Shown here: positions 43,264 to 63,633 of the stretch, one piece after another
How the letters are laid out: each line of letters opens with the position of its first letter
Numbering within the stretch: the stretch's first letter is position 1
Assembly: GCA_037146775.1 (NCBI GenBank)
Contig: JBAWWL010000005.1
Location: 102,241-166,240 of the forward strand
Direction: 5' to 3'
DNA from: Candidatus Omnitrophota bacterium
Lineage (GTDB): Bacteria; Omnitrophota; Gorgyraeia; Duberdicusellales; 4484-171
DNA length: 64,000 nt
Program-made: the position numbers and the translations under genes
The notes under the pieces: model-generated
The model's input: only the letters and a program-made list of their open reading frames with translations
Databases searched by the model: none
What the model was told of the DNA's origin: nothing

Positions 43264-43869
43264 TTACTTTTGCAGCAGTTTTTTTAACTCTTCCGCTCCG
43301 ATACAGTGGATACCTAATTTGTGTGCCCAAGAGACGAGGCCGTTATCCGAGGTGGCCAAGAGCGCGTCTAATTCTTTGGCAAGTAGCAGTAAATCAAAAT
43401 CTTCCTTGCTGTCGACGATGCCCTCGCGCAATGCGGTACGGTATTCTTCCCGCAAACGCTTGATGATTTCTTCATCTTCCCTTATCTTGTCACCGGACGG
43501 TTTCGCTTGGCCGAGGCTTTCTTTTAGTTCTCTACGGGCATATTTTTCGGCGATTCGCAAGCCCTTGTTGACCCGTAAGCGAAATTCTTCGATAAATTCA
43601 TAAAGAAAGATAGAAGGGATTTGCGTTTGATATGAAGCTGGAGGTTTTTTATTGATGAAAATAGTTTCTTCCAGCGAAGGCTTTGTGTCGATAAATTTAA
43701 GCATTTCCTCGTAGACAGAAGGAGGCATGTAGCAGAGAACATTTTGTTTCTCTTTTAACTGAGCAAGTATTGTGCGCAGCGCGCTTTCGGGAGCATCTCC
43801 AAAAAAAACACGCGAATCGGGATTTACCACCATACTTGTGTCAATAACCACGCGTATTTCTTTTTCCAT
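43264..43869 (-). CDS. PIN-domain-like putative nuclease
   Basis: N-terminal 'RVVIDTSMVV' (beta1-Asp) and a C-terminal 'LLATSDNGL' (T-x-D) arrangement, as in PIN domains. About 200 aa. Confidence 0.45.
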   Translation of the reverse strand: MEKEIRVVIDTSMVVNPDSRVFFGDAPESALRTILAQLKEKQNVLCYMPPSVYEEMLKFIDTKPSLEETIFINKKPPASYQTQIPSIFLYEFIEEFRLRVNKGLRIAEKYARRELKESLGQAKPSGDKIREDEEIIKRLREEYRTALREGIVDSKEDFDLLLLAKELDALLATSDNGLVSWAHKLGIHCIGAEELKKLLQK

Positions 43870-44021: not shown

Positions 44022-44918
44022 ATGAAGAATATACTAAAGGGTTTTTTGGTCATTATTTTTGTTTTTGGGCTAGCCGCATGCGATAAGATTTTCCCTCCCA
44101 AAGATACCGGAAGCGCAGAAAAGGAAACATTAAAGATAAAGGGGCCGCTTCTGGCGCGAGTCAATGAGTGGGTGATTGGTGTCGACGATTTTAAGAATTA
44201 CTTAAACAGTCTTGAACCGTTGGCCAAAAAGACCGGGCTGGACATAAACAGTTCGGAATTTAAAACCAGATTTTTAAGTGATTTGATCAAGGCGCAAATA
44301 CTTGCGCAGATTGCGGTAGATCGCGGCCTTGACAAAGATCCGGATGTTCTCAGGGCTTTACGTGATACCCGCGATACACTTTTAGCCGCGAAAGTAAGGG
44401 ATGATTTGGAGAAGAGGACAGGCGTTTCCTATGCGCAGATACAGGCATTTTACGAGAAGAACAAGAAACTAATCACTAAACCACAGGAAATAAAAATAAG
44501 AGAGATTGCGGTAAACAGCGAAAGTCAGGGGAAAGAGATAAATATCAGAATTTTGCAGGGAGAAAGTTTTGATACGCTCGCCAGGCAATACTCAATTTTA
44601 CCTTCAAAAGATAATGGCGGCGATCGAGGTTGGGTAAGTCCTACGCCAAAGGATATTGAGAACAGCAGAAAATATTGGACCGCCTTGGCGACGCTTGATA
44701 AAGGCAACGTTTCTAATGTGTTCAAGGCAGATGACGGCAATTATTATATTGTTAAGGTGGAAGATGTGCGCGGCGGGCAGGAAGTTCCTCTCGCGGATAT
44801 CGAGAAAGATTTAGAAAAAGCTTTAAAAGCCGAACAGATAGAAACAGAGGAAAACAAGCTTATCGAGAAATTCAAAGGAAAAAACAGAATAGAGAAGAAC
44901 GAAGACTTGATAAGATAG
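44022..44918 (+). CDS. Lipoprotein peptidyl-prolyl isomerase, parvulin (PpiC/PrsA/SurA-like)
   Basis: Lipobox 'VFGLAAC'. A SurA-like N-terminal chaperone region, then a parvulin domain 'SILPSKDNGGDRGWVSP'. Confidence 0.7.
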   Translation: MKNILKGFLVIIFVFGLAACDKIFPPKDTGSAEKETLKIKGPLLARVNEWVIGVDDFKNYLNSLEPLAKKTGLDINSSEFKTRFLSDLIKAQILAQIAVDRGLDKDPDVLRALRDTRDTLLAAKVRDDLEKRTGVSYAQIQAFYEKNKKLITKPQEIKIREIAVNSESQGKEINIRILQGESFDTLARQYSILPSKDNGGDRGWVSPTPKDIENSRKYWTALATLDKGNVSNVFKADDGNYYIVKVEDVRGGQEVPLADIEKDLEKALKAEQIETEENKLIEKFKGKNRIEKNEDLIR

Positions 44919-45010: not shown

Positions 45011-45814
45011 ATGGATAAGCGAATGATAAATTTGATTATCGGCGTGTGTTTTGCGCTTATCGCGATATTTTTAATTCATCGGCAGATGATGCAGAATGAG
45101 GCGCGCATCCAAGAGCTTATTCGCCAGGGTCAAATCGTTGAAGTGGTGATAGCTAAGGATGATATTGCCAAAGAGACGACTATCACCGCCGACATGGTTA
45201 AACTTGAAAGAGTTGCTTCTAAGTCGTTGCAGCCCGGAGATCTTACTTCCCTGGATTCGGTTATAGGAAAGTTTGCGGTCGTAGATATTCTTAAGGGCCA
45301 GCACATTAATAGTGATATGGTAAAACCGCTGTTAAGCGTGCGTTTCCTTTCCGAACGAATCCCTCCCGGTATGCGCGCTATCACTATCACTGTTGATAAG
45401 CTTTCTGCTATCGAAGGCCTGATAAAACCGGAAGACAAGGTCGATATTATAGGGACATTTACGTTCCCTGGCGGCGGTTCGCCCGTCATTATCACGCTTT
45501 TGCAGGGAGTAAAAGTACTTGCCACCAATAAAAATATTTCTCCGTATCGCGCTGAAGGTAAAGCGGATACCATTACTTTGGCGTTAAAGCCGGATGATAT
45601 CAAGATGCTTGCTTATTCCATTGAGATCGGTAAAGTTAGAATGGTATTACGTACGCCGCTTGATACATCCGAGGAGTATGAATATTCTGCGCTTACCTTT
45701 GAAGGGCTTTTGAATAAAATAGGCATGATGCAGAAACCAGTACAGCAGTCTAAGCCACCGACGATAGAAGTGTATAAAGGTTCAAAACAGGAAGAAGTCC
45801 CGGTTATTAAATAA
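45011..45814 (+). CDS. cpaB: Flp pilus assembly protein CpaB/RcpC
   Basis: N-terminal TM helix, a SAF domain ('IVEVVIAKDDIAKETTITADMVKLERV'), then a beta-rich C-domain. Confidence 0.8.
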   Translation: MDKRMINLIIGVCFALIAIFLIHRQMMQNEARIQELIRQGQIVEVVIAKDDIAKETTITADMVKLERVASKSLQPGDLTSLDSVIGKFAVVDILKGQHINSDMVKPLLSVRFLSERIPPGMRAITITVDKLSAIEGLIKPEDKVDIIGTFTFPGGGSPVIITLLQGVKVLATNKNISPYRAEGKADTITLALKPDDIKMLAYSIEIGKVRMVLRTPLDTSEEYEYSALTFEGLLNKIGMMQKPVQQSKPPTIEVYKGSKQEEVPVIK

Positions 45815-45826: not shown

Positions 45827-47431
45827 TTGATGGTTAAACGGCTCGTTGCGGCAATGGGTGTTTGTTTCCTCTGTTTTAGCTGCGCCACTATTTTTTCGCA
45901 AAATATTTTGGATAAATATGACGAAGAGGTTACACTTATCGTCGGCGAAGCCTACGTTATTCCCGTTGCATCCCCTCAGCGTGTCTCTATGCGCAATCCT
46001 GACGTTTCTGATATCGGCAAAGTGAGCGATACGGAAATAGTAATAGTGGCGAAACAGGCCGGAGATACCGCCCTGACGGTATGGGATAAGGAAGGCGAAA
46101 AAGTATTTTATATTACGGTATATGCGCACGATGTAGACCGGATATTCAAGCGCCTGGAAAAACTTATCCGTAAAGATCTGAAAATACCCAATGTGGTGCT
46201 GAAAAAGAATCAAGCGAGCGGTACGGTTATTATAACCGGCGATGTTACCTCCCTCGACAAAGAGCAGATAGATAAAATATTGGAGCCGTTTAAGGAGAAG
46301 GTGGAAAATATTCTCACCGTCAAGAAAGAAACCAAGATGGTTGAGATAGAAGCGCGTATTTTAGAAATAAATAAAACCGAGCTCGATAAATTAGGTGTGC
46401 AATGGATGGAATATATTCAAATACGGCAAGAGCCTTACAAGGCTCCCTCGGCAGATCAAGGCGTTACCACAACGCTAGATCGGCGTAGTGCCTCGGCTAA
46501 TGGGTTTTGGGGTTTTGGAAAATTTTCAAAAGATGCAATCACCGCAAAAATTAATTTACTCATTACCTCGGGGAAAGGAAAAGAATTATCGCGGCCGAAA
46601 CTTTTGTGTTTAAGCGGCGAGGAGGCTAAACTTACCGTTGGCGGCGAGGTACCTTATTTAAGCAGCTCCACCGCTTCTGCGGTAGGTACCACAATCAGTA
46701 TCGCTTACAAAGAATACGGTGTGATTTTAAAAATGCGGCCGATAGTTTCTCTTGATAGCAAAAAAATATTCGCTTCTTTAAGGGCAGAAGTAAGCGCGCT
46801 TGACTGGGAAAACGGCGTAGTGGTTTCCGGCATAAAAATTCCGGCATTCGCTACCCGCGTTGCGGAAACCGTTGTAAATTTACAGTCAGGAGATACTGTT
46901 TTTATCGCAGGCCTTATTAAGAGCAAAGATTCCGAAGGCCTTCAGAAATTTCCTGCATTAGGTAACTTACCTGTTATAGGCAACCTTTTTAGATCAAAAG
47001 AATTTCAGAATAACCAGACGGAACTGGTGATTTCTCTCACGCCCAAGGTCGTGCAGCCGGACGAGAAAGAGGACCTTATGGAAACGACGGAAATTGCCGA
47101 CAAGAAAATTATGGATGTTTACAGCGGTATTATTCCCTCGCAGTTACAGGGTTATATCGTAGAGATTGAAAAAATGATTTCCGGCAACCTTTCTTACCCG
47201 GCATCGCTGATGAATACCGGTTGGGAAGGAATGGTGGTATTGCAGTTGGACATTTTTCATACCGGAGACATAAAGAATGTTAAGGTGTCCAAAACATCCG
47301 GGCACCGTATTTTTGATTCGGACGCAATAAAATTGGTAAAGAGCCTGTCTTTTCCTCCTTTCCCTCCAGATGTCGGCGTTGAGGAATTGAATATAGAAAT
47401 TCCTATAGTGTATCGAGAGAGAAATAAATAG
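45827..47431 (+). CDS. cpaC: Tad secretin CpaC/RcpA with C-terminal TonB-like (TonB_C) domain
   Basis: Secretin core '...GGEVPYLSS...PALGNLPVIGNLFRSKEFQNNQTELVISLTPKVV'. An extra C-terminal approximately 100 aa, 'YPASLMNTGWEGMVVLQLDIFHTGDIKNVKVSKTSGHRIFDSDAIKLVKSLSFPPFP', resembles TonB_C. Confidence 0.8.
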   Translation: MMVKRLVAAMGVCFLCFSCATIFSQNILDKYDEEVTLIVGEAYVIPVASPQRVSMRNPDVSDIGKVSDTEIVIVAKQAGDTALTVWDKEGEKVFYITVYAHDVDRIFKRLEKLIRKDLKIPNVVLKKNQASGTVIITGDVTSLDKEQIDKILEPFKEKVENILTVKKETKMVEIEARILEINKTELDKLGVQWMEYIQIRQEPYKAPSADQGVTTTLDRRSASANGFWGFGKFSKDAITAKINLLITSGKGKELSRPKLLCLSGEEAKLTVGGEVPYLSSSTASAVGTTISIAYKEYGVILKMRPIVSLDSKKIFASLRAEVSALDWENGVVVSGIKIPAFATRVAETVVNLQSGDTVFIAGLIKSKDSEGLQKFPALGNLPVIGNLFRSKEFQNNQTELVISLTPKVVQPDEKEDLMETTEIADKKIMDVYSGIIPSQLQGYIVEIEKMISGNLSYPASLMNTGWEGMVVLQLDIFHTGDIKNVKVSKTSGHRIFDSDAIKLVKSLSFPPFPPDVGVEELNIEIPIVYRERNK

Positions 47432-47486: not shown

Positions 47487-49652
47487 ATGGAAGCGAAAGT
47501 AATATCTTTTTTTAGTACCAAGGGAGGCGTCGGTAAAACACTTGTTTCGTTAAACGTTGCCGTTCAGCTTGCCATACAGAACAAGCGTGTTTTCCTTTTG
47601 GACCTTGATTTGGGCGCACCTCAGGCCACATCGAAATTGATCGGTGTTGACAGCAAATACTGCCTTTTTAACCTCATCGACTATCTCAAAGAATTCAAAG
47701 AGAAAAAAAGAAAAGTAGATAATTATGCGGTAACGTATCAGAATATAATGTTTTTGCCTTCCATTTTTAAAATGTCTCAAAGAACAGCTTTTACTCCCCA
47801 GGTAGTAAAAGATTTTATCTCGGTTATCTGGGACGATTTCGATTACATCATCATCGATGCGGGCAGTAATCTTACCGATAACCTTATCGCGGCACTGGAA
47901 TGCTCAAACCTTATCAGCTTGATTCTTACCCCGGATATTCTGGCGGTATATCAGACACAGTGGCTTATGGACACGTTACAGAGCTTAGGGTTTCCGCTCA
48001 CCATGATTAAGGTGGTGCTGAACCGTGCCGAAAGCAAAGGCTCTATTACCTGGCAGGAGGTAAAGGCATTGCTCCCGGCTGAGACTATAGCTCTCATCCC
48101 TTCGGAAGGCAGGGCTGCCGGCCTTGCCGTTAACCGCGGAGTGCCGCTGGTACTTGATAGCCCGCAGTGCCGGTTTACTCTCGCTATTCAAAAGCTATCC
48201 AAGGATATTGTCGAACGAAAAGACATGTATATCAGCCACAAAAGCCTTTCCGACGTGCGTCTGGCCAAAGAAAAATTTGAGGGAGGAGAAGAGGCTTTCT
48301 GGCAGCGCGTAGGAGTTATAGAACGCGAAGAGAAAGTGGCGTTGATTGAGGAAGAGGATGAAATTATCCGCTTCAAGAAACAAGTCCACGAAAGGCTTAT
48401 CGAAGAGCTTGATTTGAAACGTCTTCATATTGAAACGTACGCCACGAGTCCTCAGAAAATGAATGAGCTAAGAGCCAAAGCGGAAAAGGTGATTTCTAAT
48501 GTTATCAGCAAGGAAGCGGGTGGTTTTATTTCTGCCACCGAGGTACGCAGGCAAATTACCAAGGATATTCTGGAAGAAGCTCTTGGTTTGGGCCCACTCG
48601 AGGACCTTTTGCGTGATCCTACGATAACCGAAGTAATGGTAAACAATAAAGACCAGATCTACATTGAACGCTTTGGTAAGTTAGAGGTAACCAGCAAAAA
48701 ATTTACCACCAACGAACAAGTGAGGATTGTTGTTGAGCGTATCTTGGCGCCGCTGGGCAGACGTATTGACGAGTCGGTTCCTTACGTGGATGCCCGTCTT
48801 CCCGACGGCTCCCGTGTAAACGCAATTATTCCGCCCCTTTCTCTTACTGGCCCCACTCTGACCATAAGAAAATTTGCCAAACAGCGCTGGGGTATGGAGG
48901 ATTTGATAAACCGTTTCGGAAGCCTTACCCATGATATGGCGCTTTTTCTTGAAGCTGCGGTAAGGTCGCGTAAAAATTCGCTTGTTTCCGGAGGCACCGG
49001 TTCGGGGAAAACTACGTTTTTGAATATCTTGTCTGCCTATATTCCCGACAGTGAACGTATTATTTCTATAGAAGATGCGGCTGAATTGAAATTGCGCCAG
49101 GCTCACTGGATTCGTTTGGAATCCCGTCCGCCCAACATCGAGGGCAGAGGCGAAATTACTATCAGAGATTTATTCAGGAATACGTTGCGTATGAGACCGG
49201 ACAGGATCATCGTCGGTGAAGTGCGAGGCAGGGAAGTGTTGGACATGCTTCAGGCAATGAACACCGGCCATGACGGCAGTATGTCTACTATTCACGCCAA
49301 TTCCACACATGACGTTTTAATCAGGCTTGATAGTATGATTTTGATGAGCGGCGTAGAGTTACCGCTGCGTGCTATTAGAGAACAGGTTTCTTCGGCGATT
49401 AACTTAGTGGTTCATACCGCCCGTCTTTCCGATGGTTCGCGTAAAGTAATAGCTATCACTGAAATCATTGGCATGCTTGATGAGACGCATATTAATATGC
49501 AGGACATATTTGTGTATCGCCAGACCGGTGTAGATAAAGATGGCAATGTTCAGGGGTATTACACACCGCTTGGTTATATTCCCACTTTTTACGATGAAAT
49601 CAGGGCCAGAGGTATTGATTTATCCAGGGAAATATTCGTTCCTAAGGATTAA
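47487..49652 (+). CDS. Fusion of TadZ/CpaE-like ParA/MinD ATPase domain and TadA/CpaF secretion ATPase
   Basis: The N-terminal '[22 protein letters not shown]' is a deviant Walker A within a MinD-like domain (approximately 260 aa). The C-terminal approximately 400 aa is CpaF-like ('[13 protein letters not shown]', '[12 protein letters not shown]', His box '[12 protein letters not shown]'). Confidence 0.8.
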
Positions 49653-49670: not shown

Positions 49671-50744
49671 ATGGCACACGGTATAGAAAAGATCCAAAAA
49701 CTGCTGCAAGACCCGAAGATTACCGAAATAATGATTAACGGGTCGCGGGATACCTTCATTGAAATGGGAGGGTTAAAGAATCGCCTCCCAGATTGTATTT
49801 TCACCGAGGAAGACATCAAAGAGATAATTGACGAGTATTTTAATAAAGTAGGTAAACCCGTCAACTACTACAATCCTTTCGGCGACGTATGCATCGAAGA
49901 TGGTTCGCGTTTTAATATTATTACCTACCCGCTTGCCCGCTGCGGCACCTCATTAACTGTTAGAAAATTTAACCGTGAGCTCCACAGCCTGGATGATTTG
50001 ATAAAAGAAGGGACTCTCACCCGCAGGATGGCCGATTTTTTAATCGCTTGCATCCATGGCAGAATCAATGTTTTATTTTCCGGCGCTACCGGAAGCGGTA
50101 AAACCACGACCATGGAAATGCTTTCTTACCATATTCCCGAACAGGAACGTATTGTTACCATTGAAGACACCGCGGAACTTCAGCTGCATCATCCCAATTT
50201 AGTACCCATGGAAACACGTTCTCCCGACCAGGATGGAAAAGGAGAAGTGACTTTGCGCGATCTGATACGTAACGCTTTACGTATGAGGCCGGACAGGATT
50301 ATCGTCGGTGAGGTGCGAGGTCCTGAGGCGTTGGATATGATTCAGGCAATGTCTACGGGCCATCGCGGAACGCTTGGAGTCATTCACGGTAACTCTCCGC
50401 AAGAAATAACCAGCCGTCTTGAAACGCTCATTCTTTCTTCCGGTATACGCTTGCCGCAGGAAGAGATACGCAGGATGATCGGTAACACCCTTAATGTGAT
50501 TATTCAGCAGGAGCGGTTTCCTGACGGAGTAAGGCGTATTACTCATATTTCAGAGGCGCGTGGGGTTGAACGCGGAGAAGTAGCGTTGCAGGATTTATTT
50601 ATCTTTCGCCGTGAAGGTAAAACCCCTGACGGTAAAATCAAAGGTAAATTTAAGACCGTCATGAGAATGTATCCCCGCTTTTTTGCCGATTTCCAAAGGT
50701 TAAAACTGATGGATGAAACGATATTCGGCGAAGATTCTAATTAA
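49671..50744 (+). CDS. Second TadA/CpaF-type secretion ATPase (short form)
   Basis: '[14 protein letters not shown]', '[12 protein letters not shown]', '[12 protein letters not shown]'. It lacks the long N-terminal extension. Confidence 0.85.
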
Positions 50745-50821: not shown

Positions 50822-52273
50822 GTGACGGCTGCAAAGTGCGGGTTAGAAAAAAATATGCGCGCAAAAATCGACGCTCGTTTAAAAAATCTAGTAGTACGTC
50901 TGGCAAAAAGCAATAAAGGTTTGGGGGTGCGTTTATTGGCCAAACTTATCAAAGAGAAACACGGGATTGCTCTTTCTAAAAGCGCCGTACAGAATATTTT
51001 TAAGCAAGGGCATATAAAGCAATCAAGGGGGAGGAAAACTTATCTTTCGCGCTATCAACGCAAAGATATTGTTCCCTGCGGATTTTTGCTGCTTAAAGCC
51101 ATAGATTCTCAAGTCGGGCTCTTTGATTTACTTACGGACCAACTACGAATGTATTTTGCGCGCATGCAGCCGGCATTATTGAAAAAAATCATTATGCTGG
51201 TTACTTTTTCTTCCTATCAAGGCCTCACCACCAAAGTGTCCGCACGGGAACCCGGTTTCTTACGTATCACAGATCTACGCTCTTACCCTGCCAGAAAAGT
51301 TAAGTTTTTTCTCTCGCGCATCGCCGACTACAAGCCCTTAGTGACTGTTGAAAAAATAAAGCCTCTGCTTGAGCCTGTTTCGACAGTAAAATTCTACTTT
51401 GGTAATAACACCGTAGGTTATACCGACGCTAATTTTTCTACTATTTGGGACAGCCCTTGCCGTATTAGCCATTTTTTTCAACCCTATTATTATGTGCTTT
51501 CGAGGCTTTCGGCTATGCTTCGAGACCAGACACTCATTCTTTATTATACGCAAAGTTTTAATTATCTTTCGCCTTTAGTGGTAAGTTTTATCGATGGTTT
51601 AGCTACGGGCATTACCAAGGTAGAATTGCTTGGCCCCAGTGGTGCAGTTATACACCAAGAAAACCATGCTATCCCTAAGCTTTCTTTCTTGATCGGCTAT
51701 TATCCCAAGATAATCGCAAAAGGAATGACCTTTTTAGAGAAAGAGCAGCATTTTAAAAAAGTGGAGGGCTTTTGGCAAGATTTGTCTTACGCGTATATTC
51801 TTACCCGATTTTCGCAGCCCAAAGGGAACAAAGGAATCATCACAAACAGTATTCTGGTAAAAACCATAAAGAAATCTCTTCCTTCCTGGGCTGTGCTTAC
51901 CGATAAAAGGACTAATATCGCCGCACTACTGAAACGTTATTTGTTACTCTGGCCGTATCGGGAAAAGACGTTTCTTGAAGATATGAAAATTATCGAGCGC
52001 TCTTACGTTTTTGAGGAAAGTAAGAAAGATACTCAGTTGCCTGCCCTCACAAGCCTCACCCTAGAGAAAGAATCGGATTTTCTCCATATTGCCGAACTAT
52101 TAGCCGCTCTTTTTAGCGCGCGTGTAGCCCAAGCAAAGTTTAAAGAATTGTCGGGCGAATATGTAACAGGTAAGGAATCCTGCCGGTTGGTTATCACCAG
52201 CCCCCCGGCGTTTAAGGAAAAATTTAACATGAATTGTTTCTTTCTTGGTGGTAAACGCGTTATTTTGCTCTAA
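50822..52273 (+). CDS. Hypothetical soluble protein embedded in the Tad locus (N-terminal HTH-like segment)
   Basis: 483 aa with no TM helices and no recognised domain. The N-terminal 'LGVRLLAKLIKEKHGIALSKSAVQNIF' looks HTH-like. A start at ATG 50855 is also possible. Confidence 0.4.
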   Translation: MTAAKCGLEKNMRAKIDARLKNLVVRLAKSNKGLGVRLLAKLIKEKHGIALSKSAVQNIFKQGHIKQSRGRKTYLSRYQRKDIVPCGFLLLKAIDSQVGLFDLLTDQLRMYFARMQPALLKKIIMLVTFSSYQGLTTKVSAREPGFLRITDLRSYPARKVKFFLSRIADYKPLVTVEKIKPLLEPVSTVKFYFGNNTVGYTDANFSTIWDSPCRISHFFQPYYYVLSRLSAMLRDQTLILYYTQSFNYLSPLVVSFIDGLATGITKVELLGPSGAVIHQENHAIPKLSFLIGYYPKIIAKGMTFLEKEQHFKKVEGFWQDLSYAYILTRFSQPKGNKGIITNSILVKTIKKSLPSWAVLTDKRTNIAALLKRYLLLWPYREKTFLEDMKIIERSYVFEESKKDTQLPALTSLTLEKESDFLHIAELLAALFSARVAQAKFKELSGEYVTGKESCRLVITSPPAFKEKFNMNCFFLGGKRVILL

Positions 52274-52854: not shown

Positions 52855-53160
52855 ATGAAAACAAAAAAGATATCGGCGCAGTCAGTCATTGAATATATTT
52901 GCGTAACCATGGTGTTTGCTGCCGTGGGTATAGGAACTTTTGTTGCGGCAAACCATGCGGCAGTAGCGAATCTGCGCGGTCATGGCACCAACTATCAGTC
53001 TCAGACTAACCTTATGGGTCAAACCACCTATGCCGGTATCGACAAAGAACAATACAACTGGCCTTCTACTTGGGATCAGGCATATCCGGGAACAAGCAGC
53101 AAGCAGGTTCGCCAATTTGTGGATAATCCGGAACAAACTTCAGGACAAGGAGGAGAGTAA
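52855..53160 (+). CDS. Flp/Fap-family type IVb prepilin-like protein 1
   Basis: 'MKTKKISA|QSVIEYICVTMVFAAVGIG' has a class III signal-peptide motif (A|QSxxEY) plus a hydrophobic helix. Confidence 0.7.
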   Translation: MKTKKISAQSVIEYICVTMVFAAVGIGTFVAANHAAVANLRGHGTNYQSQTNLMGQTTYAGIDKEQYNWPSTWDQAYPGTSSKQVRQFVDNPEQTSGQGGE

Positions 53161-53339
53161 TGTTAGCCCATATCAGAAAATCAAAGGCGCAGAGTATTCT
53201 TGAATACGTGTCGTTAACGCTTATTGTATGGGGAGCGTTGTCGGCAATGACATTTTATATTCAGCGGGCGATGGAAGTAAGGACCCGGCATCTTAACCAG
53301 GAATTAAACGAGAATGCCAGAGGAAATGGGATGATTTAA
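53160..53339 (+). CDS. Flp-like prepilin 2 (59 aa, below ORF-track cutoff)
   Basis: ATG overlaps the previous stop (taATG). 'MLAHIRKSKA|QSILEYVSLTLIVWGAL'. Confidence 0.6.
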   Translation: MLAHIRKSKAQSILEYVSLTLIVWGALSAMTFYIQRAMEVRTRHLNQELNENARGNGMI

Positions 53340-53353
53340 AAGGAGCGAGAAAC

Positions 53354-53800
53354 ATGAAGCAACATAACCATAAAATCATGGCTCGAGGGCAAAGCATAAC
53401 AGAGTATTTGATCGTGTTAGCAGCTATTATCGGCGCTATTGTGGCCAGCACTATCGGCATACGTTATGGGGTAAACAGAGGTATGAAGACCGTTAATGAA
53501 AAATTTGAAAAAGGCATTGCTACCAGCAGCGTTCCGGGAAAGCAAAAGGCATATTTACAAACGGAAGAGTCTTACGATGATTCAAGACAGCATAAAACTG
53601 ACCCGGCATGGGAAAACACCGATCAGCCAGGAGGCCCTCAGTATACTGGTGGCTATGAATATGAGGAGTGGGTGCGTAATAATCCCGACAGCGCTTACAA
53701 TGCGCCGGAAGATGGGAAAACATTATATGATACCGGCGTTAAACCGTATCCGGCAAAAAATTATTGGGTAGGCAATGTCAGGGGGCAGAAAGGTAAGTAG
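53354..53800 (+). CDS. Flp-like prepilin 3 with extended C-terminal domain
   Basis: 'MARG|QSITEYLIVLAAIIGAIVA'. 148 aa. Confidence 0.7.
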   Translation: MKQHNHKIMARGQSITEYLIVLAAIIGAIVASTIGIRYGVNRGMKTVNEKFEKGIATSSVPGKQKAYLQTEESYDDSRQHKTDPAWENTDQPGGPQYTGGYEYEEWVRNNPDSAYNAPEDGKTLYDTGVKPYPAKNYWVGNVRGQKGK

Positions 53801-53808
53801 GCGTTTTT

Positions 53809-53973
53809 ATGTATAGAAAAACAAAAGCACAGAGTTTTATCGATTATGCAGCGTTAATTGCGATTATTGTGGTATCGCTGCTAGCCATGTCCGGCTATGT
53901 TATGCGGTCAATTAACGCGAGGGTTGCCCACATGTGGGCGGATTTATATCATCCACAAAACGGAGTAAGGTAG
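53809..53973 (+). CDS. Flp-like prepilin 4 (54 aa, below ORF-track cutoff)
   Basis: 'MYRKTKA|QSFIDYAALIAIIVVSLLAM', identified by manual translation. Confidence 0.6.
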   Translation: MYRKTKAQSFIDYAALIAIIVVSLLAMSGYVMRSINARVAHMWADLYHPQNGVR

Positions 53974-53989
53974 GAGGAGGTGAGTTGTA

Positions 53990-54172
53990 ATGGTTAAGAA
54001 GGCGCAGAGTATTCTCGAGTACGTCATCGTTCTTTCAGCTATCGTAGCAGCAGTTATCGCAATGGCAAGAGGTCCGGTAACGCAGGCGGTAAACAAAATG
54101 TTTACTGATTCATCTAACGTGATCCAGGAGAAGTCGGGCATTTTTTATCAGCAGTCAGCCGGTGGTAAGTAA
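53990..54172 (+). CDS. Flp-like prepilin 5
   Basis: 'MVKKA|QSILEYVIVLSAIVAAVIA'. Confidence 0.7.
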   Translation: MVKKAQSILEYVIVLSAIVAAVIAMARGPVTQAVNKMFTDSSNVIQEKSGIFYQQSAGGK

Positions 54173-54201
54173 GGGGTATTATTCTTGAAGGAGGTGTGAA
54201 A

Positions 54202-54516
54202 ATGTTAACCAGACGTAAAAAGGGACAATCAGTAGCGGAATACGCGATCTTAATTTCTCTTTGCGTTGCCGCATTTATGGGGATACAGAACGAAGTACGC
54301 AGAGCTATTCAGGCTCGCGTTCACGACGCGGCAGTAGAACTAACGCAAGGCGGCACATGGCAATATGAGCCTTCTGCAGGCGTTAAGACGACCACGAACC
54401 AGAAGTCAGAGCGTATTAAAGATGAAAACTGGATTGATAAGGGTGACGTGGATTCAGTGTATCAGAAAGTTGCAGATACCAACAGCGCTGATTACAAATC
54501 CGACGAAACGAAATAA
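54202..54516 (+). CDS. Flp-like prepilin 6
   Basis: 'MLTRRKKG|QSVAEYAILISLCVAAF'. RBS 'gaaggagg' is 7 nt upstream of ATG 54202. Confidence 0.7.
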   Translation: MLTRRKKGQSVAEYAILISLCVAAFMGIQNEVRRAIQARVHDAAVELTQGGTWQYEPSAGVKTTTNQKSERIKDENWIDKGDVDSVYQKVADTNSADYKSDETK

Positions 54517-54567
54517 GGACGCTTATTATTTTATTTTATTACGCACATAACTTAAGGAGGTGCGAAC

Positions 54568-54921
54568 GTGTTAACCAGATGTAGAAAAGCACAAAGTACT
54601 CTTGAATATGCCCTTCTCATCGGAGTGGTGGTAGGAGTGCTGTTGACCATGCAGAACTACTTAAAAAGAAGTATGCAGGGTAAATTACAGGCTACCGCTG
54701 ATGAAATGGGCGAACACTATTCTCCTGGCGATACGAAACGTCACGAACGTCTCTATTCGTCAATCGACAGCGTGACTGAAACGTCGATTTATGGAAAAGC
54801 ATCCGATACTTCCGGTGAAGTCGGAAGAACCCGCACCGTTATTAAGGGCGGAAAACAAGAGCAGGCGGCCACCAGAGAAAACCGCGGTCTTGACAGAGAA
54901 AGATGGGAGCACAAGAAATAA
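54568..54921 (+). CDS. Flp-like prepilin 7 (GTG start)
   Basis: 'MLTRCRKA|QSTLEYALLIGVVVGVLL'. RBS 'aaggagg' precedes it. Confidence 0.65.
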   Translation: MLTRCRKAQSTLEYALLIGVVVGVLLTMQNYLKRSMQGKLQATADEMGEHYSPGDTKRHERLYSSIDSVTETSIYGKASDTSGEVGRTRTVIKGGKQEQAATRENRGLDRERWEHKK

Positions 54922-55001
54922 ATTCCGCCGGGCTTACGCATCGTTGGTGTCAAGTATGGGCAGGGGTGTAAAGTAGTTGTAGTAAACTGAAAGGATGAAT
55001 A

Positions 55002-55328
55002 ATGTTAATGAAACGTAAAGCAGTGACTGTATTGCAGTACAGTTTCCTTATCGCAGTAACGGTGGGAGTATTGCTTACCATGCAAAATTACATAAAACGC
55101 AGTATGCAAGGGCAATTGCAGACTTATAGCGATTCCATGGGTGAGCAATACTCCCGGGGACTGACGAATATACACGACCATTATTCATCCACAGCGAAAA
55201 CCACAGAATGGAAGCTACCCACATTCAATATACGCGGTAATGGCGGCGACTGTACGCATACTCAGGGAACATATACGGCCACCTCGGAACGAGAGCTTTT
55301 ACCTCTTGATGCGGAGCGCTGGAATTAA
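55002..55328 (+). CDS. Flp-like prepilin 8 (variant motif)
   Basis: 'MLMKRKA|VTVLQYSFLIAVTVGVLL', with Q in place of the E+5 residue. Its paralogy to prepilin 7 is evident ('LTMQNYIKRSMQG'). Confidence 0.6.
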   Translation: MLMKRKAVTVLQYSFLIAVTVGVLLTMQNYIKRSMQGQLQTYSDSMGEQYSRGLTNIHDHYSSTAKTTEWKLPTFNIRGNGGDCTHTQGTYTATSERELLPLDAERWN

Positions 55329-55357
55329 CAAACCGTTTTAAGAGCAGCTATAAAAAC

Positions 55358-56035
55358 ATGAATGTAACCAATAAAAGAACAGATTGTTACCGATACGGTT
55401 ATAAAAAGGCACAGTCTTTTCTGATGTACGCCTGTTTAATTGGCATAGTTATCGGAGTACTGTTGACCATGCAGCGTTATATCGGCAGAAGCATGCAAGG
55501 GCTTCTGAAGCAGAATCTAGATAATATGGGCGGTGAAAAAGTGTCCGGTAAACAATATAGTCCTGGACGCTGGTTTGGTTCAAAGAGTTTAGTGCGGGTT
55601 AATACCAGTGGTTTTGACTACGAAGGCAGACATGGTTTTGGTGTGAATATTGCGAACAGCCAGCGTAGCGAATCCGTCCGTATCACCGATACAATTAACC
55701 CCGGAGACCTTCCCCCGGTAAATTTAGATACTAAAAGCGTGCTTGACGGAGAGGATAAGCGGTTGATCCAAGATACGTATGGTTCTGATTTTGATCCGGG
55801 TATAAATAAAGTGGAAAATAATGTGAATGGTGGCGTCCGTGACTGGGAGTATGTGTCGGAGAAAGCGCCGGATAGTGTTGGCGCCAATGCCGACGAGAAT
55901 TTCGATCAGAGAACAAAAAACACCTTTGGCGAACATATTCCTGAGTCCTCTACCGCGGGCGCGGTGGGCGAAAGCAAGGGGCCTAACTACGAAGGAGAAG
56001 CCGGAACCAATTTACCAGAAAATAAGGCACAATGA
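55358..56035 (+). CDS. Flp-like prepilin 9 with large C-terminal domain (225 aa)
   Basis: 'YKKA|QSFLMYACLIGIVIGVLLTMQRYIGRSMQG'. Confidence 0.6.
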   Translation: MNVTNKRTDCYRYGYKKAQSFLMYACLIGIVIGVLLTMQRYIGRSMQGLLKQNLDNMGGEKVSGKQYSPGRWFGSKSLVRVNTSGFDYEGRHGFGVNIANSQRSESVRITDTINPGDLPPVNLDTKSVLDGEDKRLIQDTYGSDFDPGINKVENNVNGGVRDWEYVSEKAPDSVGANADENFDQRTKNTFGEHIPESSTAGAVGESKGPNYEGEAGTNLPENKAQ

Positions 56036-56427
56036 GAAAAGCAAACGCTATTATTGAATATACATTTATTATTGCTATAGTAATTAGTGCTCTTGCGGGC
56101 ATGAATGCGTATTTAAAACGCGTAGTGCAGGCGCACATTAAAAGAGAAACCGATGAGCACTTATATATGCCTTCATCTTTCTTATGGCAAAGTTCAGTTA
56201 CTTTTCGCAGGCAAGAAACCGAGCATGACCGCCGTGAATATGCTCACGGCGATACAGTGGTCAATGTAACCAGTCGCAGTCCGTCGGTGAGTTTGCATGC
56301 GCCTTCTCCGCCCGGGGTTCCGGTGGCGGGTATACATGCGCAGGATGCAGCGTCAGCGCCTCCTGGCCAGAGTAACCCAAGTAATCCGACGAGCGATGAG
56401 CAAACCGAAGTGCCAGCGGCAGATTAA
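56032..56427 (+). CDS. Flp-like prepilin 10
   Basis: 'MRKA|NAIIEYTFIIAIVISALAG'. Start overlaps the previous stop (ATGA). Confidence 0.65.
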   Translation: MRKANAIIEYTFIIAIVISALAGMNAYLKRVVQAHIKRETDEHLYMPSSFLWQSSVTFRRQETEHDRREYAHGDTVVNVTSRSPSVSLHAPSPPGVPVAGIHAQDAASAPPGQSNPSNPTSDEQTEVPAAD

Positions 56428-57032
56428 TGTATTTTATGAAGACCATGAAAAAATTATTTAGCAAAAAAGCCCAGGCAATGGTAGAGTTGGCAATCCTGGG
56501 GCCCCTGCTTTTAATGGCGGTTGGCCTGGTGGTTACCTATGTAGCCAAGATGAATAATGACCAGTGGGTATTGATGGAGGCATTTCGCCGGGCACTCGCC
56601 CATTCTCATGACGAAAACAAAAATGTTGGCTACGGCACCTATGATGACCGCAGAATGGCTTCAGTGCAGGAGCCGATTCTCGGCCAAAAAACTCCTTCAA
56701 GCGGCTCTGCTTGTGTGGTGTGGTCAATTCCCTCGGTAGACGGAGATGGCCAGGACCCTCAAAGTACCACTATTGTAAAAGTAAACGGTGGCATCTGGGC
56801 GATTCCTGGTTATAATGAATATGATCTTGGGCCAGGCGCCGGCGGCGGCGTAGAACCCCTTTATTTAACTGCCAAAGGTTCGAATCTTACTGTTAAAACC
56901 GAAGACGGGGTGACTACCTCAACCCGTTCTGGCGGAGTGGGCGAGTTCATGTTATATAAAATCAATAAAAAGAATCATCCGCAGGGCCGTGGTAGCGGAG
57001 ATTCACGTACCTTTACCGGCCATGCTGACTAG
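56427..57032 (+). CDS. TadE-like pseudopilin
   Basis: 'KKAQAMVELAILGPLLLMAVGLVV' resembles the TadE N-terminal motif (G/A-x-VEFALV-P). Alternative starts at 56436 and 56445. Confidence 0.6.
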   Translation: MYFMKTMKKLFSKKAQAMVELAILGPLLLMAVGLVVTYVAKMNNDQWVLMEAFRRALAHSHDENKNVGYGTYDDRRMASVQEPILGQKTPSSGSACVVWSIPSVDGDGQDPQSTTIVKVNGGIWAIPGYNEYDLGPGAGGGVEPLYLTAKGSNLTVKTEDGVTTSTRSGGVGEFMLYKINKKNHPQGRGSGDSRTFTGHAD

Positions 57033-57081
57033 CGGGTAATATAAACTGTTGTTGTTTTATGGAGACTTAAGGAGGAGACGG

Positions 57082-57342
57082 ATGCGAACGAGAAAAGCCC
57101 AAAGCATATTAGAATCAGTGCTTGCCTATGTTGCCGGAACCGCGCTTTTAGGTGCGGCTATGGGTATTTTTGCCTGGGGCATAGCACATATTCCGATTAG
57201 ACAGGTTACTTATGAGGCAACGCGCATTATTGCCGGAACTCCGCGTTGTCGTATGGTGGATAAAGACGGCGCAAAAAAAACAGGTATCGGCAGTATGCCG
57301 GTTTGGCCGACTTATTTTGTCGGCGGCGGAGTTACGCCATAA
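57082..57342 (+). CDS. Flp-like prepilin 11 (variant)
   Basis: 'MRTRKA|QSILESVLAYVAGTALLGAAMGIFA'. RBS 'aaggagga' precedes ATG 57082. Confidence 0.55.
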   Translation: MRTRKAQSILESVLAYVAGTALLGAAMGIFAWGIAHIPIRQVTYEATRIIAGTPRCRMVDKDGAKKTGIGSMPVWPTYFVGGGVTP

Positions 57343-57639: not shown

Positions 57640-59331
57640 ATGCTTACCTATATGAGAAAAAATATCAAAGCATGTACCAGCCATAACGGCCAGGTTGCGG
57701 TGTATTTTATCGGAGCTATGGCCACCTTAGTGGTAGTGGCTTTTATTATTATTAATATAGGTAAGACTGCCAAAGATAAAACTCATGCGGATAATGCCGC
57801 TGACGCAGCAGCCTTAGCCGGCTGCTCAGTCATGGCTACTTCCTTTAATTATTCTTCTCATGATAACAGTAATGAGCCTCGAGGCGTTGGCGTGCCCGGG
57901 CCAGCAGCAAGTACGGGTTCTCAGGTATCCCTTTCTAATTCCGGCTATAAAGCTGCCATAGGAGGCATGATGCACCGGCATTTCCAACAGGCGCGTAATG
58001 AGTATAAACGCAAAGCTACAGAAGCTAAACGTAAAGCCAGAAAAAATTCTATGGAACGCTCAAACGAGAACCAAACTTCTATGTATGACCCGAGCGCTTT
58101 TGCTGCAGAGAGCGCGGATTATCAAGCTTCCAAAGAAGGCGAAGCCAACCGTTTTAATATCGAACAACAACAGATAGCAGCTGAAGAGTGGAAAGCTTGG
58201 TCTGACCAGCAATATATGGCAAGGTCGTATACTGTTGATAAGCCTGGTTTTGGTTTTGCCGGGACCGGAGGCTCTGTCGGGTTAAGCGGCACTAGTAGGG
58301 TCGCATCTCTTAGTAACGTGCCTACCCCTCAGCCTAGCGATGGTGACGCGGGAGTCGGTGATCCTTATGGTGAAAATGCTGCTTCATCTGGAGAGGCAAA
58401 ATCTTCAGATTACCACAGCCAAGCTTTAGTAGTAGCCTATAAAGTTCTTTTTCAGAATGCGGGCATTCATCACCGTTTGGGCCGTTTAACCAGCAAGATG
58501 TATGAAAAGTTCTTAGAGGGTATTAGCGAGGGAACCGTGCAAAGCGGTATGCCGCTTACTTTCTGGTGGGTGGATGGTGCTGCGCGTTTTCACATGGTGA
58601 CTGGCGTGGTAGAAATCGAATCTGCCAACAAGCATCAAAAAAGAACTACTCCTGGTGGCGGCGCTGGCGCTGCTTCAGTAGCTGCCAGTTTATCTTCTGG
58701 TTGGAAAGGAAAATTTGCTATGACTGGCATTATGGGTTTGCGTATGTCTTCCATGCAATCAGCCACCGGCTATAGCACCCATACCGGACTCAATTCCACT
58801 GCTAAAGGTCATGATATTACCGCCCAGAACCCTTGTTTGTACCCGATCTTCCGGCCCTTAGGTATGGCTACTTCAGGTGCGGCTGAGGGAACTGCGCGTG
58901 GCCAGGGAGATACGCCCAGTGAAATGCATCAGGCTTTAAACGGCGGTGACGCTTTGCCTACTGCTGGTTTAGTCAGTGCTGGATCAAGTCCGATGGGAGC
59001 GGCTTCTATGAAGCTTGCGGTAGGGGGCGGCCCCACTAGCGGAGATCCTACGTATGCTGGTACCATGAGTGACGGAACTCCTAGCGACGATAATGCGGTG
59101 AGAGATGATGAGATTGTTAATTCCCGTATGGTTATGGCTTCCTGTTTTCAGTTTCATATGGGTAGCCCCATTAAAGGCATTGCTGCGGATATCGATGTAA
59201 TGACTTTTTATCCGCCGGTGGTAAGCATGGCAGTAGCCAGCTTTAACTATACTGGTATGGGCAACATTGCTCGTGCTAGTGGCGATGGTTCTGATGCGCG
59301 GCATGAATGCGGCTTGGTAGCAGCATTCTAA
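57640..59331 (+). CDS. TadG-like pilus-assembly protein (TadE/G-like N-terminus, large Gly/Ala/Ser-rich C-terminal region)
   Basis: N-terminal 'NGQVAVYFIGAMATLVVVAFIIINIGKTAKDKTHADNAADAAALAG' matches the TadG-like motif (...QxAADAAALAGA). Confidence 0.6.
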   Translation: MLTYMRKNIKACTSHNGQVAVYFIGAMATLVVVAFIIINIGKTAKDKTHADNAADAAALAGCSVMATSFNYSSHDNSNEPRGVGVPGPAASTGSQVSLSNSGYKAAIGGMMHRHFQQARNEYKRKATEAKRKARKNSMERSNENQTSMYDPSAFAAESADYQASKEGEANRFNIEQQQIAAEEWKAWSDQQYMARSYTVDKPGFGFAGTGGSVGLSGTSRVASLSNVPTPQPSDGDAGVGDPYGENAASSGEAKSSDYHSQALVVAYKVLFQNAGIHHRLGRLTSKMYEKFLEGISEGTVQSGMPLTFWWVDGAARFHMVTGVVEIESANKHQKRTTPGGGAGAASVAASLSSGWKGKFAMTGIMGLRMSSMQSATGYSTHTGLNSTAKGHDITAQNPCLYPIFRPLGMATSGAAEGTARGQGDTPSEMHQALNGGDALPTAGLVSAGSSPMGAASMKLAVGGGPTSGDPTYAGTMSDGTPSDDNAVRDDEIVNSRMVMASCFQFHMGSPIKGIAADIDVMTFYPPVVSMAVASFNYTGMGNIARASGDGSDARHECGLVAAF

Positions 59332-59346: not shown

Positions 59347-60237
59347 ATGAAAAATTATAAATTTTTTATTTTTGGTTTCTTTCTTCTATTTTTCCTGCCT
59401 TTTTTAGCCGAAAGCCAAACAGCTCCCCCTGACACCCCGGCATTCCCCTTACCTATGCATACTGAAAAAATCGGAGAAAGAACCGAAGAGGTTGACGGAT
59501 TTGTTAATACTTTTTACCAATATTTTTCTCAGCTTTCTAGCCAAGAAATTATTGAATTTTACCGTAATGCATTAGTCGAGCAGGGCTTAGAGGAGGTAGA
59601 GGTCTCTCCAGGTCCGGCTTCCGTTGCAGTACATTTTGCTAAAGGTAAAAGCAGAATTGTTTTCGTAGTACTTTATATTTGGAATAAGCCGCTCGACCAG
59701 TGGGCCAAGGAAGATGAAGGAAAGACCGTATATTTTCTCAATGTTTTCGATAATCGCGATGTTTTACAGCTGGCTAACGCCGAATTTAAATATCCGGACA
59801 GGCTTAGCTTCGCTCCGGTGTATCCCCAAGCCAAGCAGTTTTGTTTACGCGATGAGCCTTCTAAATGGAAAGTTGCTGCTTACTTAAGCGACGGCGAGGT
59901 TGAAAAAATAGCTAACTTTTATATGAAAGAAATGCCGCAGTATAATTGGAAGTTTACCGGTACCAATAGTTATGAAAGCAACCAGAATATTGTCGACGCT
60001 CTCTTAAACGGCGACCCTAACCCGAAAAAACTTTCCGGAGAAGAAATGATGCCGGGAGTAACCGTAGACGTGAAAGGAGCCACTTTAACGTATGCACAAG
60101 GAGACGGTAAACGTTGTGCTATCAATATTATGCAGTTTCGTGATCCGCCGGACGTGCTCGCGCAGCACAGAATTAACCCGAGTGCTTTTAAAAAATACGG
60201 CAATATTTATATCAGTTTAGTGGTGTATGACCAGTGA
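59347..60237 (+). CDS. Secreted protein, paralog family member 1 (unknown function)
   Basis: Signal peptide 'MKNYKFFIFGFFLLFFLPFLAES'. Shares 'xxFYRNALVEQG...' and the C-terminal pattern with the 60453 and 61307 proteins. Confidence 0.55.
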   Translation: MKNYKFFIFGFFLLFFLPFLAESQTAPPDTPAFPLPMHTEKIGERTEEVDGFVNTFYQYFSQLSSQEIIEFYRNALVEQGLEEVEVSPGPASVAVHFAKGKSRIVFVVLYIWNKPLDQWAKEDEGKTVYFLNVFDNRDVLQLANAEFKYPDRLSFAPVYPQAKQFCLRDEPSKWKVAAYLSDGEVEKIANFYMKEMPQYNWKFTGTNSYESNQNIVDALLNGDPNPKKLSGEEMMPGVTVDVKGATLTYAQGDGKRCAINIMQFRDPPDVLAQHRINPSAFKKYGNIYISLVVYDQ

Positions 60238-60282
60238 AATTTTACTTGTGTATGGAATAGTTTACAATAAAATATAAATGGT

Positions 60283-60450
60283 AGTTATGAAAAATAAAAG
60301 ATCCAAATCTCAGGCAATACTCACCTACGCAGCGCTTATCGCTATCGTCATTACCGTGCTTATTATTATGTGGGGCTATATCCAGCGCCGAGTGCAGGGT
60401 GTGTACCAGGCAGCTGGCGATTCTATCGGCGAAGGCGAGCAGAAAGATTA
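60283..60450 (+). CDS. Flp-like prepilin 12 (55 aa, below ORF-track cutoff)
   Basis: Manual translation gives 'MVVMKNKRSKS|QAILTYAALIAIVITVLIIMWGYIQRRVQG...'. Confidence 0.5.
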
Positions 60451-62787: not shown

Positions 62788-63633
62788 GTGTTATATTTTT
62801 CTTACATTCTGCTTACTGCCGCAATCGTTATATTTTCTTACTACGGCGTAACGATGGCATTAAAGCAGTGGGACCAAACCCAGAAGCGCCGCGCAGAAGA
62901 AGTTACCTCCCAGTTCGAGAACATGTTTATCTTCATTAACAAGAAGATGCTTCTTCTTCTCTTTCCTATTGTTGCGCTGGCTCTGGCAGCCCTGGGTTAT
63001 ATCTTTACGAAAAAATGGTGGATTGGCGCCGTTCTTTTAGCGGTCGGTTTTTTAGCCCCTTCCTGGGTCATGCATCAGCTTGACCAGCGCCGCCGGAAGA
63101 AATTTGTCCTGCAGCTGGTGGACGGCCTGATGATTATGAACAGCTGTTTAAAGGGAGGCCTTACCTTAACTCAATCGTTTGAGGTTTTAGCCGAGGAGAT
63201 GGCTCCGCCGCTAAGCCATGAGGCGGCGCTCTTAAACCGCGAGATTAAAGTCGGCGTCACACTCGAAGAGGCGCTTTTGCGTCTTGAGCGCAGGATGCCG
63301 TCGGAAGAAATGACCTTAGTTACTTCAGCGGTATTGGTGGCGAGAGAGACCGGAGGAGATCTTACAAAAGTATTTTCGCGATTAGTTGAAACCATCCGTG
63401 ATAGGATTAAACTTCGCGAGCTTGTTACCACACTCACCTTGCAGGCGCGCCTGCAATCCATTGTAATTTCACTCTTGGGCCCTGTATTTTTTATAACGGT
63501 GCGTAAAATACAACCTACGCATTTTGATATCATGATGCAGGATGATCTGGGGCGAATGCTTTTAGGTATTGCGCTTATTTTGCAGATACTAGGTATTGTG
63601 TTGATTGTTATCTTTGGAAAGATAGAAGTATGA
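62788..63633 (+). CDS. tadB: Tad pilus inner-membrane platform protein TadB (GspF-like domain)
   Basis: N-terminal TM, a cytoplasmic T2SSF-like helical domain ('...FEVLAEEMAPPLSHEAALLNREIKVGVTLEEALLRLERRMP...') and C-terminal TMs. Confidence 0.75.
   Translation: MLYFSYILLTAAIVIFSYYGVTMALKQWDQTQKRRAEEVTSQFENMFIFINKKMLLLLFPIVALALAALGYIFTKKWWIGAVLLAVGFLAPSWVMHQLDQRRRKKFVLQLVDGLMIMNSCLKGGLTLTQSFEVLAEEMAPPLSHEAALLNREIKVGVTLEEALLRLERRMPSEEMTLVTSAVLVARETGGDLTKVFSRLVETIRDRIKLRELVTTLTLQARLQSIVISLLGPVFFITVRKIQPTHFDIMMQDDLGRMLLGIALILQILGIVLIVIFGKIEV

Follow-up and report, generated by a model that had tools for sequence, protein, structure and literature searches.

Secretin targeting, assembly and anchoring vary by system, and for Tad pili the RcpA–TadD pair is the only solved case. 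In Pseudomonas aeruginosa, RcpA forms a channel of 13–14 subunits and carries, after the secretin domain, a random-coil S-domain of approximately 17 residues, the last four of which insert into a groove of the tetratricopeptide repeat (TPR) lipoprotein pilotin TadD and are needed for secretin assembly (PMC10499894). Secretin S-domains sit outside the barrel, close to the inner leaflet of the outer membrane (PMC10499894). The C-terminal beta-hairpin of P. aeruginosa RcpC binds the N-domain of RcpA, completing its sheet (PMC12307814). TonB and TolA are composed of an N-terminal transmembrane helix with SHLS, which binds the ExbBD or TolQR motor, a middle part spanning the periplasm, and a C-terminal domain that binds its targets by beta-strand addition (PMC12204202). 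Here, we describe a Tad secretin that ends, after a flexible linker, in a folded TonB/TolA-type C-terminal domain (TonB_C); it is encoded at 45827..47431 on the + strand of a 64-kb stretch of Candidatus Omnitrophota DNA (64,000 nucleotides of contig JBAWWL010000005.1, hereafter the window). The Omnitrophota are ultra-small bacteria and suspected predators or parasites. Their Tad pili are considered a hallmark of attachment to a host (PMC10066038).

The open reading frame (ORF) at 45827..47431 runs without interruption and gives 534 aa if the listed TTG start is used. An ATG at 45830 lies directly after this TTG, with a GGAGG ribosome-binding site upstream, and is the likelier start on sequence grounds; its product of 533 aa is 100% identical, over the full length, to protein P0001 of an NCBI Candidatus Omnitrophota metagenome-assembled genome (MAG). 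The parts listed below are numbered on the 533-aa product, and the residue numbers of its Pfam matches are those of the 534-aa product from the TTG, higher by one. A full-length AlphaFold2 monomer model (A1) was computed with 53 homologues, and its confidence is given as the predicted local distance difference test (pLDDT).

45830..45901, + strand: signal peptide, residues 1–24 (MVKRLVAAMGVCFLCFSCATIFSQ), with a predicted helix at 2–17
45920..46123, + strand: N-domain (pil_N, beta-sandwich), residues 31–98; PF13629, 43.5 bits; pLDDT >90
46127..46324, + strand: N1-like alpha/beta domain, residues 100–165; helix 102–116, strands 122–127 and 132–139, helix 141–157, strand 158–164; pLDDT ~90
46325..47059, + strand: secretin core (beta-barrel and gate), residues 166–410; PF00263, 138 bits; PDB matches
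47060..47134, + strand: flexible linker, residues 411–435; pLDDT <50 at residues 413–429
47135..47419, + strand: TonB/TolA-type C-terminal domain, residues 436–530; PF03544, TIGR01352, pLDDT >90, PDB fold matches

A preliminary description, made from the window sequence, had assigned this gene to the CpaC/RcpA-type Tad secretins, and this assignment was borne out by the pil_N and Secretin profile matches and by the tad gene neighbourhood. In Pfam, T2SS-T3SS_pil_N (PF13629) matched residues 33–97 with 43.5 bits against a cut-off of 23, and Secretin (PF00263) matched residues 245–410 with 138 bits (E 2.8e-40). No Pfam match to Secretin_N or STN was detected in the secretin, the N-domain being of the pil_N (RcpA-N) type and not an N0/STN domain with Secretin_N repeats. 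In relatives, the N1-like region gave BON or YscD-like matches. The best matches of the secretin in a PDB sequence search were 8jvb (141 bits) and RcpA 8odn (105 bits). In a Foldseek search with the full-length model, secretins ranked first (A. caldus 9wfd/8jvb, RcpA 8odn, GspD, PilQ and InvG) and TonB domains appeared as separate local matches; superposition of the full-length monomer on the solved secretins gave a root-mean-square deviation (rmsd) of 16–40 Å, arising from domain orientation, and only the identity of the matches was used. The gate and lip loops of the core (191–232 and 365–393) are of low confidence in the model. The signal peptide has no lipobox, indicating that the secretin is not a lipoprotein.

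The resemblance of the last approximately 100 residues to TonB_C, which the preliminary description had pointed out, was confirmed by profiles, by model confidence and by fold matches. TonB_C (PF03544) matched residues 454–530, covering profile positions 2–78 of 79, with 53.6 bits (gathering cut-off 24.6; E 3e-14), so that both Pfam profiles proposed for the check, Secretin and TonB_C, gave significant matches. TonB_2 of Pfam (25.7 bits, cut-off 22) and tonB_Cterm of NCBIfam (TIGR01352, 49 bits, cut-off 27.1) matched as well. The domain is modelled as alpha-beta-beta-alpha-beta, with helix 437–452, strands 467–476 and 481–488, helix 493–505 and strand 519–528, and an AlphaFold model of the domain only gave the same fold as the full-length model with pLDDT >90. 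The predicted structure of the C-terminal segment is thus an ordered TonB-type fold, and neither a disordered tail nor an extension of the beta-barrel. When the domain-only model was compared with the PDB by Foldseek, ranks 1–24 were occupied exclusively by the C-terminal domains of TonB, FusB, HasB and TolA. The template modelling (TM) score, normalised to the target, was 0.59–0.77 for the TonB and FusB entries (rmsd 1.6–3.0 Å) and lower for HasB and TolA; among the matches were H. pylori TonB (6sly, E 6.6e-5, TM 0.71) and E. coli TonB in the FhuA complex (2grx, TM 0.77), and the PDB sequence search for the domain was in accord. Residues Y442, P457, G479, S490, D496 and P525 are invariant, and the conserved sequence includes the YP motif, SSG..FD and, in the last strand, IPIxY, all of which are typical of TonB_C.

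Next to the fold, we considered the distribution of the fusion, and the survey of related genomes that had been suggested found it to be recurrent. Each of the 120 homologues listed combines Secretin with TonB_C, even at identities as low as 30%, and those with a named source are Omnitrophota; the proteins are called ‘TonB family protein’ at NCBI and ‘pilus assembly protein CpaC’ at JGI. An exhaustive profile search was made over 1.84 billion cluster representatives (50%-identity clusters), and nearly all of the best 150 matches, those considered here, align from the N-domain to the end of TonB_C. GTDB species representatives contained at least 466 relatives, of which the best 80 were analysed as loci; all 80 are Omnitrophota MAGs, and the matches reach approximately residue 529 except for one that is ended by a contig edge. 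A further search, seeded with the divergent member P0242, gave 69 matches at or above 419 bits, every one of them fused, and at or below 128 bits ordinary CpaC/GspD secretins without TonB_C (Ralstonia, Planctomycetaceae, Caulobacteraceae), with a single 375-aa protein lacking TonB_C between the two groups at 254 bits. Based on this sharp score gap and on the Omnitrophota-wide recurrence, the fused secretins form a discrete clade of Tad secretins, which is specific to Omnitrophota as far as present data reach. The earlier remark that such a fusion is not the standard architecture therefore holds against the characterised Tad secretins, RcpA ending in its short coil, but fails within Omnitrophota, where the fusion is the standard form. 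Taken together, the architecture, the fold and the phylum-wide conservation of the secretin–TonB_C fusion can be regarded as virtually certain.

Some database labels depart from this distribution. Bins of the third-party annotation (TPA) division labelled ‘uncultured Planctomycetia/Planctomycetales’ (L014, L015, L017, L028, L029, L038 and others) carry the Omnitrophota-type operon, and L015 is the same contig as L001, with identical synteny; the taxonomy on these bins seems too coarse or mistaken. Among the cluster members, RLG57178.1 is labelled Candidatus Hydrothermarchaeota archaeon, and a mis-binned contig is suspected.

Mean pairwise identity was highest in the secretin core (0.50), followed by TonB_C (0.44) and the N-domain (0.42), and fell to 0.14 in the linker. 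By this measure TonB_C is under purifying selection and about as conserved as the remaining protein; these values indicate a selected functional module on a flexible tether. Over 53 homologues, the linker was 15–51 aa in length, mostly 24–29, rich in E, K and A, with 7% Pro. Among 267 retrieved relatives, 250 carried one TonB_C copy, 16 carried two in tandem and one (P0258) carried none. The tandem proteins are 640–1090 aa in length with linkers between the domains, and their operon is unchanged; members with two copies include P0124, P0126, P0128, P0132, P0133, P0135, P0138, P0188, P0204 and P0214 (loci L084 and L085). P0258 (L083, 5513–6775) lacks TonB_C, but its operon is kept, including the gene of a peptidyl-prolyl isomerase (PPIase), and only approximately 70 bp separate its stop codon from the next gene, indicating a clean loss of the domain. 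In the double-TonB_C locus L084, the Tad genes are followed at 9627–15718 by a cluster resembling type IVa pili and the type II secretion system (T2SS), with PilM, PilO, a secretin of STN, Secretin_N and Secretin domains, and an MshE-type ATPase. This second secretin is without TonB_C, which indicates that the fusion is specific to the Tad secretin.

Compared with the RcpA/CpaC secretins (RcpA 8odn; A. caldus 8jvb/9wfd), the Omnitrophota protein has the same pil_N N-domain and Secretin core, and as in RcpA systems it is accompanied by a CpaB with a C-terminal hairpin tail of the kind that binds the secretin N-domain. The difference lies at the end of the chain, where one or two folded TonB_C domains on a linker stand at the sequence position of the TadD-binding tail of RcpA. 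In Omnitrophota, the short unstructured pilotin-binding tail is thus replaced by a linker of 15–51 residues and a well-folded TonB/TolA-type domain. As in the S-domain and pilotin pairs of type II and type III secretion, GspD–AspS/PulS and InvG–InvH, the appendage follows the last strand of the secretin domain; however, the S-domains of GspD and InvG are short helix or coil peptides bound by a lipoprotein, whereas the appendage described here is an autonomous, tethered globular domain of approximately 95 residues.

The domain shares its fold and motifs with the C-termini of TonB and TolA (best matches H. pylori TonB, FusB, P. aeruginosa TonB, E. coli TonB and TolA domain III), but the secretin–TonB_C protein is not a TonB. 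Its N-terminus consists of a signal peptide and pil_N instead of a transmembrane helix with SHLS, a secretin takes the place of the proline-rich or helical domain II, the linker is only 15–51 aa, and the domain sits on an outer-membrane protein, which is an inverted topology. With the domain attached to an outer-membrane protein and the other parts of TonB missing, the fusion protein alone cannot transmit force from the inner membrane, and the database name ‘TonB family protein’ is misleading because it reflects the domain match alone. Type IVa pili offer a further parallel in PilQ with AMIN domains, TsaP and PocAB–TonB3, in which a type IV filament secretin is likewise combined with an additional periplasmic part that serves its anchoring or localisation, and a TonB paralogue is likewise genetically linked to pilus assembly. 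Their accessory modules are, however, N-terminal AMIN domains or separate proteins, and TonB3 is a separate inner-membrane protein whose contact with PilQ is only hypothesised, whereas here a TonB-type domain is covalently placed at the C-terminus of a Tad secretin.

As in other Tad systems, the secretin is encoded with CpaB/RcpC, TadZ, a CpaF/TadA ATPase, Flp pilins, TadE/G-like proteins and TadB/C. The other features of the operon in the window are as follows.

44022..44918, + strand: SurA/PrsA-like PPIase lipoprotein, first gene of the operon (Rotamase_2/3, Rotamase and weak SurA_N_3; lipobox ...GLAAC followed by DK)
45011..45814, + strand: CpaB/RcpC, periplasmic alignment-ring protein (Pfam SAF and RcpC; C-terminal tail ...TIEVYKG...)
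47487..49652, + strand: TadZ::CpaF fusion, 721 aa (AAA_31/ParA/CbiA at 4–195, ParA/MinD-like; T2SSE at 366–662)
49671..50744, + strand: second CpaF-like ATPase, 357 aa (PF00437; 42% identical to the CpaF part of TadZ::CpaF)
50822..52273, + strand: conserved operon protein, 483 aa (no Pfam match above cut-off; weak HTH_32 at the N-terminus)
52855..57342, + strand: array of ~12 small Flp-type pilin/pseudopilin genes (N-termini ...KAQS(I/T)LEY... followed by a hydrophobic helix)
56427..57032, + strand: TadE-like gene within the pilin array (weak TadE match)
57640..59331, + strand: TadG-like protein (PF13400 Tad, 33.8 bits)
62788..63633, + strand: TadB/TadC-type platform protein (PF00482 T2SSF, 66.9 bits)

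The gene order PPIase, CpaB, secretin::TonB_C, TadZ::CpaF was invariant across the approximately 80 loci with enough flank. The PPIase gene lies directly 5′ of CpaB in essentially all of them, and its lipobox is kept nearly everywhere, mostly with Asp or Glu at +2. We know of no such PPIase gene in characterised tad loci; its product may serve the secretin or the pilins as a dedicated chaperone. The CpaB tail motif [VI]E[IV][YF]RG is conserved in approximately 78 loci, at the end of a low-complexity tether. Directly 3′ of the secretin, TadZ::CpaF is fused (720–724 aa) in all related loci with flank, unlike in P. aeruginosa, where TadZ and TadA are separate proteins (PMC12307814).

The Pfam scan of the window took in most ORFs of at least 130 aa of the 64 kb, and the other large ORFs scanned were housekeeping genes. 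Neither among the scanned ORFs nor within ±10 kb in L001 and L002 was a TPR/TadD-like pilotin gene found, which is a further difference from the RcpA/CpaC systems. The earlier statement that the locus lacks a lipoprotein pilotin thus stands with respect to TadD but needs amendment, the operon being headed by the conserved PPIase lipoprotein. Genes of the ExbB/ExbD/TolQR/MotAB type were absent from the scanned ORFs of the window and from the gene tables of the related loci inspected, and the scanned ORFs included no TonB-dependent receptor. Neither the window nor the ±6 kb around the 80 loci contained another TonB_C protein or a split form of the fusion.

What the domain does can be approached from its position and from the known activity of its fold. 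The C-terminus of the secretin would exit on the periplasmic side, outside of the barrel, and if the channel has 13–14 subunits as in RcpA, each channel would therefore carry a ring of TonB-type domains beneath the outer membrane, on tethers of up to approximately 9 nm. These domains may capture a short beta-strand (‘box’) of a partner envelope protein by strand addition. We infer, with about an even chance of being right, that TonB_C is a docking module for secretin assembly, localisation or anchoring, acting in place of the TadD-binding tail; this role is favoured because capture of a partner beta-strand is the established activity of the fold. A candidate partner, by guilt by association, would be the PPIase lipoprotein that heads the operon.

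Several observations weigh against this proposal. No binding partner was found for the domain, and the absence of TadD was established by a local check, covering the scanned ORFs of the window and the flanks of L001 and L002. Asp or Glu at lipobox position +2 is an inner-membrane retention signal by E. coli rules, which makes the PPIase unlike a classical outer-membrane pilotin. P0258, which lost the domain, keeps the same operon with the PPIase, indicating that the domain is not strictly essential and that the PPIase is independent of it. In a mirror-tree analysis of 72 loci, controlled for CpaF, the partial r between the C-terminal domain (CTD) and the PPIase (0.41) equalled that between the CTD and cytoplasmic TadZ (0.41), with 0.23–0.35 for the other parts; this co-evolution does not single out the PPIase and is uninformative. 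Two candidate ligands were also considered and set aside. The CpaB tail [VI]E[IV][YF]RG was rejected as a specific ligand of TonB_C because the same hairpin of RcpC is bound to the RcpA N-domain in P. aeruginosa, whose Tad system has no TonB_C (PMC12307814). A motif resembling the Ton or TolB box, QxFL[DS]L, marks the start of the mature secretin in only 48 of 242 members, in clades near the window, and is thus not a family-wide ligand.

Other explanations, among them the tethering of the channel to peptidoglycan or to inner-membrane partners that the preliminary description had raised as a possibility, must be compared with docking to a partner protein. An assembly or gene-calling error joining the secretin gene to a neighbouring tonB-like gene is of negligible probability: the reading frame is continuous in the window, no locus has a separate TonB_C ORF, and the same architecture is found in hundreds of independent assemblies (NCBI, JGI, ENA and Logan), a recurrence that excludes such an artefact. 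We also think it unlikely that the TonB-type domains hold the secretin ring non-covalently to the cell wall and so resist the pull of the pilus, as is done in type IVa pili by the AMIN domains of PilQ or by TsaP, a LysM protein. A domain on a flexible tether beneath the outer membrane, in one copy or two in tandem, would suit this role, variable copy number being typical of wall-binding modules. In addition, no peptidoglycan-binding or -cleaving part has been reported for Tad machines (PMC12307814), and TsaP, described as the anchor of the PilQ secretin to peptidoglycan, provides a precedent (PMC8811193). However, the TonB_C domains of the family are mostly acidic (median isoelectric point 4.9), which is unexpected for binding to anionic peptidoglycan, and the well-established activity of the fold is beta-strand addition to proteins (PMC12204202). 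Wall binding by TonB C-terminal domains themselves was reportedly seen in older in vitro work.

The ring could also be closed upon itself, the domains binding one another or a strand of the neighbouring subunit to form a stabilising belt round the channel, with no external partner. Such self-association is in keeping with 13–14 copies close together, by analogy with RcpA, with the short beta-bridge that linker residues 26–27 form with the domain in the domain-only model, and with strand-swapping of truncated TonB C-terminal domains, of which 1u07 and 1qxx, both among our fold matches, are presumably dimeric examples. The linker is, however, the least conserved part (identity 0.14), and the cis-motif that was examined, QxFL at the mature N-terminus, is not conserved family-wide; the models are of monomers and hence blind to oligomer contacts. 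We rate self-association as rather improbable. Still more doubtful is a ‘reverse TonB’, in which the domain on the secretin would bind a Ton-box-like strand of a protein that is anchored in the inner membrane and possibly driven by a motor; gating, localisation or the dynamics of the pilus would then be tied to the inner membrane, in a covalent counterpart of the PocAB–TonB3 requirement of type IVa pili. Gene fusions often mark physical interactions, by Rosetta-stone logic; TonB2 of A. baumannii influences pilus-dependent transformation. TonB3 and PocAB are needed for the assembly and polar localisation of type IVa pili, a dependence for which the mechanism is unexplained and a TonB3–PilQ contact has been proposed (PMC5285504). 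In contrast, no motor genes of the ExbB/ExbD/TolQR/MotAB type and no other TonB_C protein were found in the loci searched, the tether, mostly 24–29 residues, is short for a periplasm of approximately 24 nm, and the CpaB hairpin already links the inner and outer membranes (PMC12307814); the N-domain, moreover, is pil_N and not the N0/STN-like domain invoked for PilQ. A broader version of this idea, to which we likewise give little credence, would take the fusion as a Rosetta stone for a direct and general contact of TonB-type C-terminal domains with type IV filament secretins, the missing mechanism of the PocAB–TonB3 dependence; the docking domain of the Omnitrophota would then be a permanent part of the channel, and the Ton-box-like strand that it binds would belong to a partner in the inner membrane or linked to a motor, or else to an envelope protein of a prey or host under attack. 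If so, secretin gating, placement or pilus dynamics would be coupled to the captured partner and not to a pilotin.

In the literature on Omnitrophota (Omnitrophica) secretins and on fusions of TonB C-terminal domains, we found no description of this architecture. Tad genes including RcpA were analysed across Omnitrophota by Seymour et al. in 2023, with the domain unmentioned (PMC10066038); a 2026 preprint notes ‘TonB-domain’ genes as neighbours of giant ORFs, in loci with many secretion and pilus genes, and discusses no link to secretins (bioRxiv 10.64898/2026.06.07.730766); and secretin fusions go unmentioned in a 2025 survey on the evolution of TonB/TolA (PMC12204202). The architecture thus appears to be visible in automated annotation yet undescribed. 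Hundreds of entries named ‘TonB family protein’ are Tad secretins, and the name can mislead metabolic or transport inference, for example for the ‘TonB-domain’ genes of the preprint (bioRxiv 10.64898/2026.06.07.730766). With respect to pilus assembly, the phylum would use a solution other than RcpA–TadD, namely a strand-capture-type TonB/TolA domain on the secretin and a dedicated lipoprotein PPIase. Through the fusion, TadD-independent assembly of secretins becomes open to experiment, as does the genetic link of TonB paralogues with type IV pili, and the ligand of the TonB_C domain would tell how the attachment machine of Omnitrophota is built into the envelope.

Further observations concern the remainder of the locus. 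The second CpaF-like ATPase occurs only in clades nearer to the window, a DUF192 gene standing in its place in farther loci (L002, L083 and L085), and could be a dedicated retraction or extension paralogue. Homologues of the 483-aa protein, of 480–600 aa, are found at the same position in many loci. The array of Flp-type pilin genes is unusually large, with approximately 12–13 paralogues (52855–57342 and 60278–60451) whose C-terminal parts are very different. After the TadG-like gene, three paralogues (59347–60237, 60399–61295 and 61307–61804) share approximately 25% mutual identity and have hydrophobic, signal-peptide-like N-termini, with no family match. Immediately before the operon, and in antisense orientation to it, is a PIN_5-domain ribonuclease gene at 43264–43869 (− strand), as is also the case in L001; two CNNM/CBS transporter genes precede it, and this neighbourhood is kept at 39% secretin identity.

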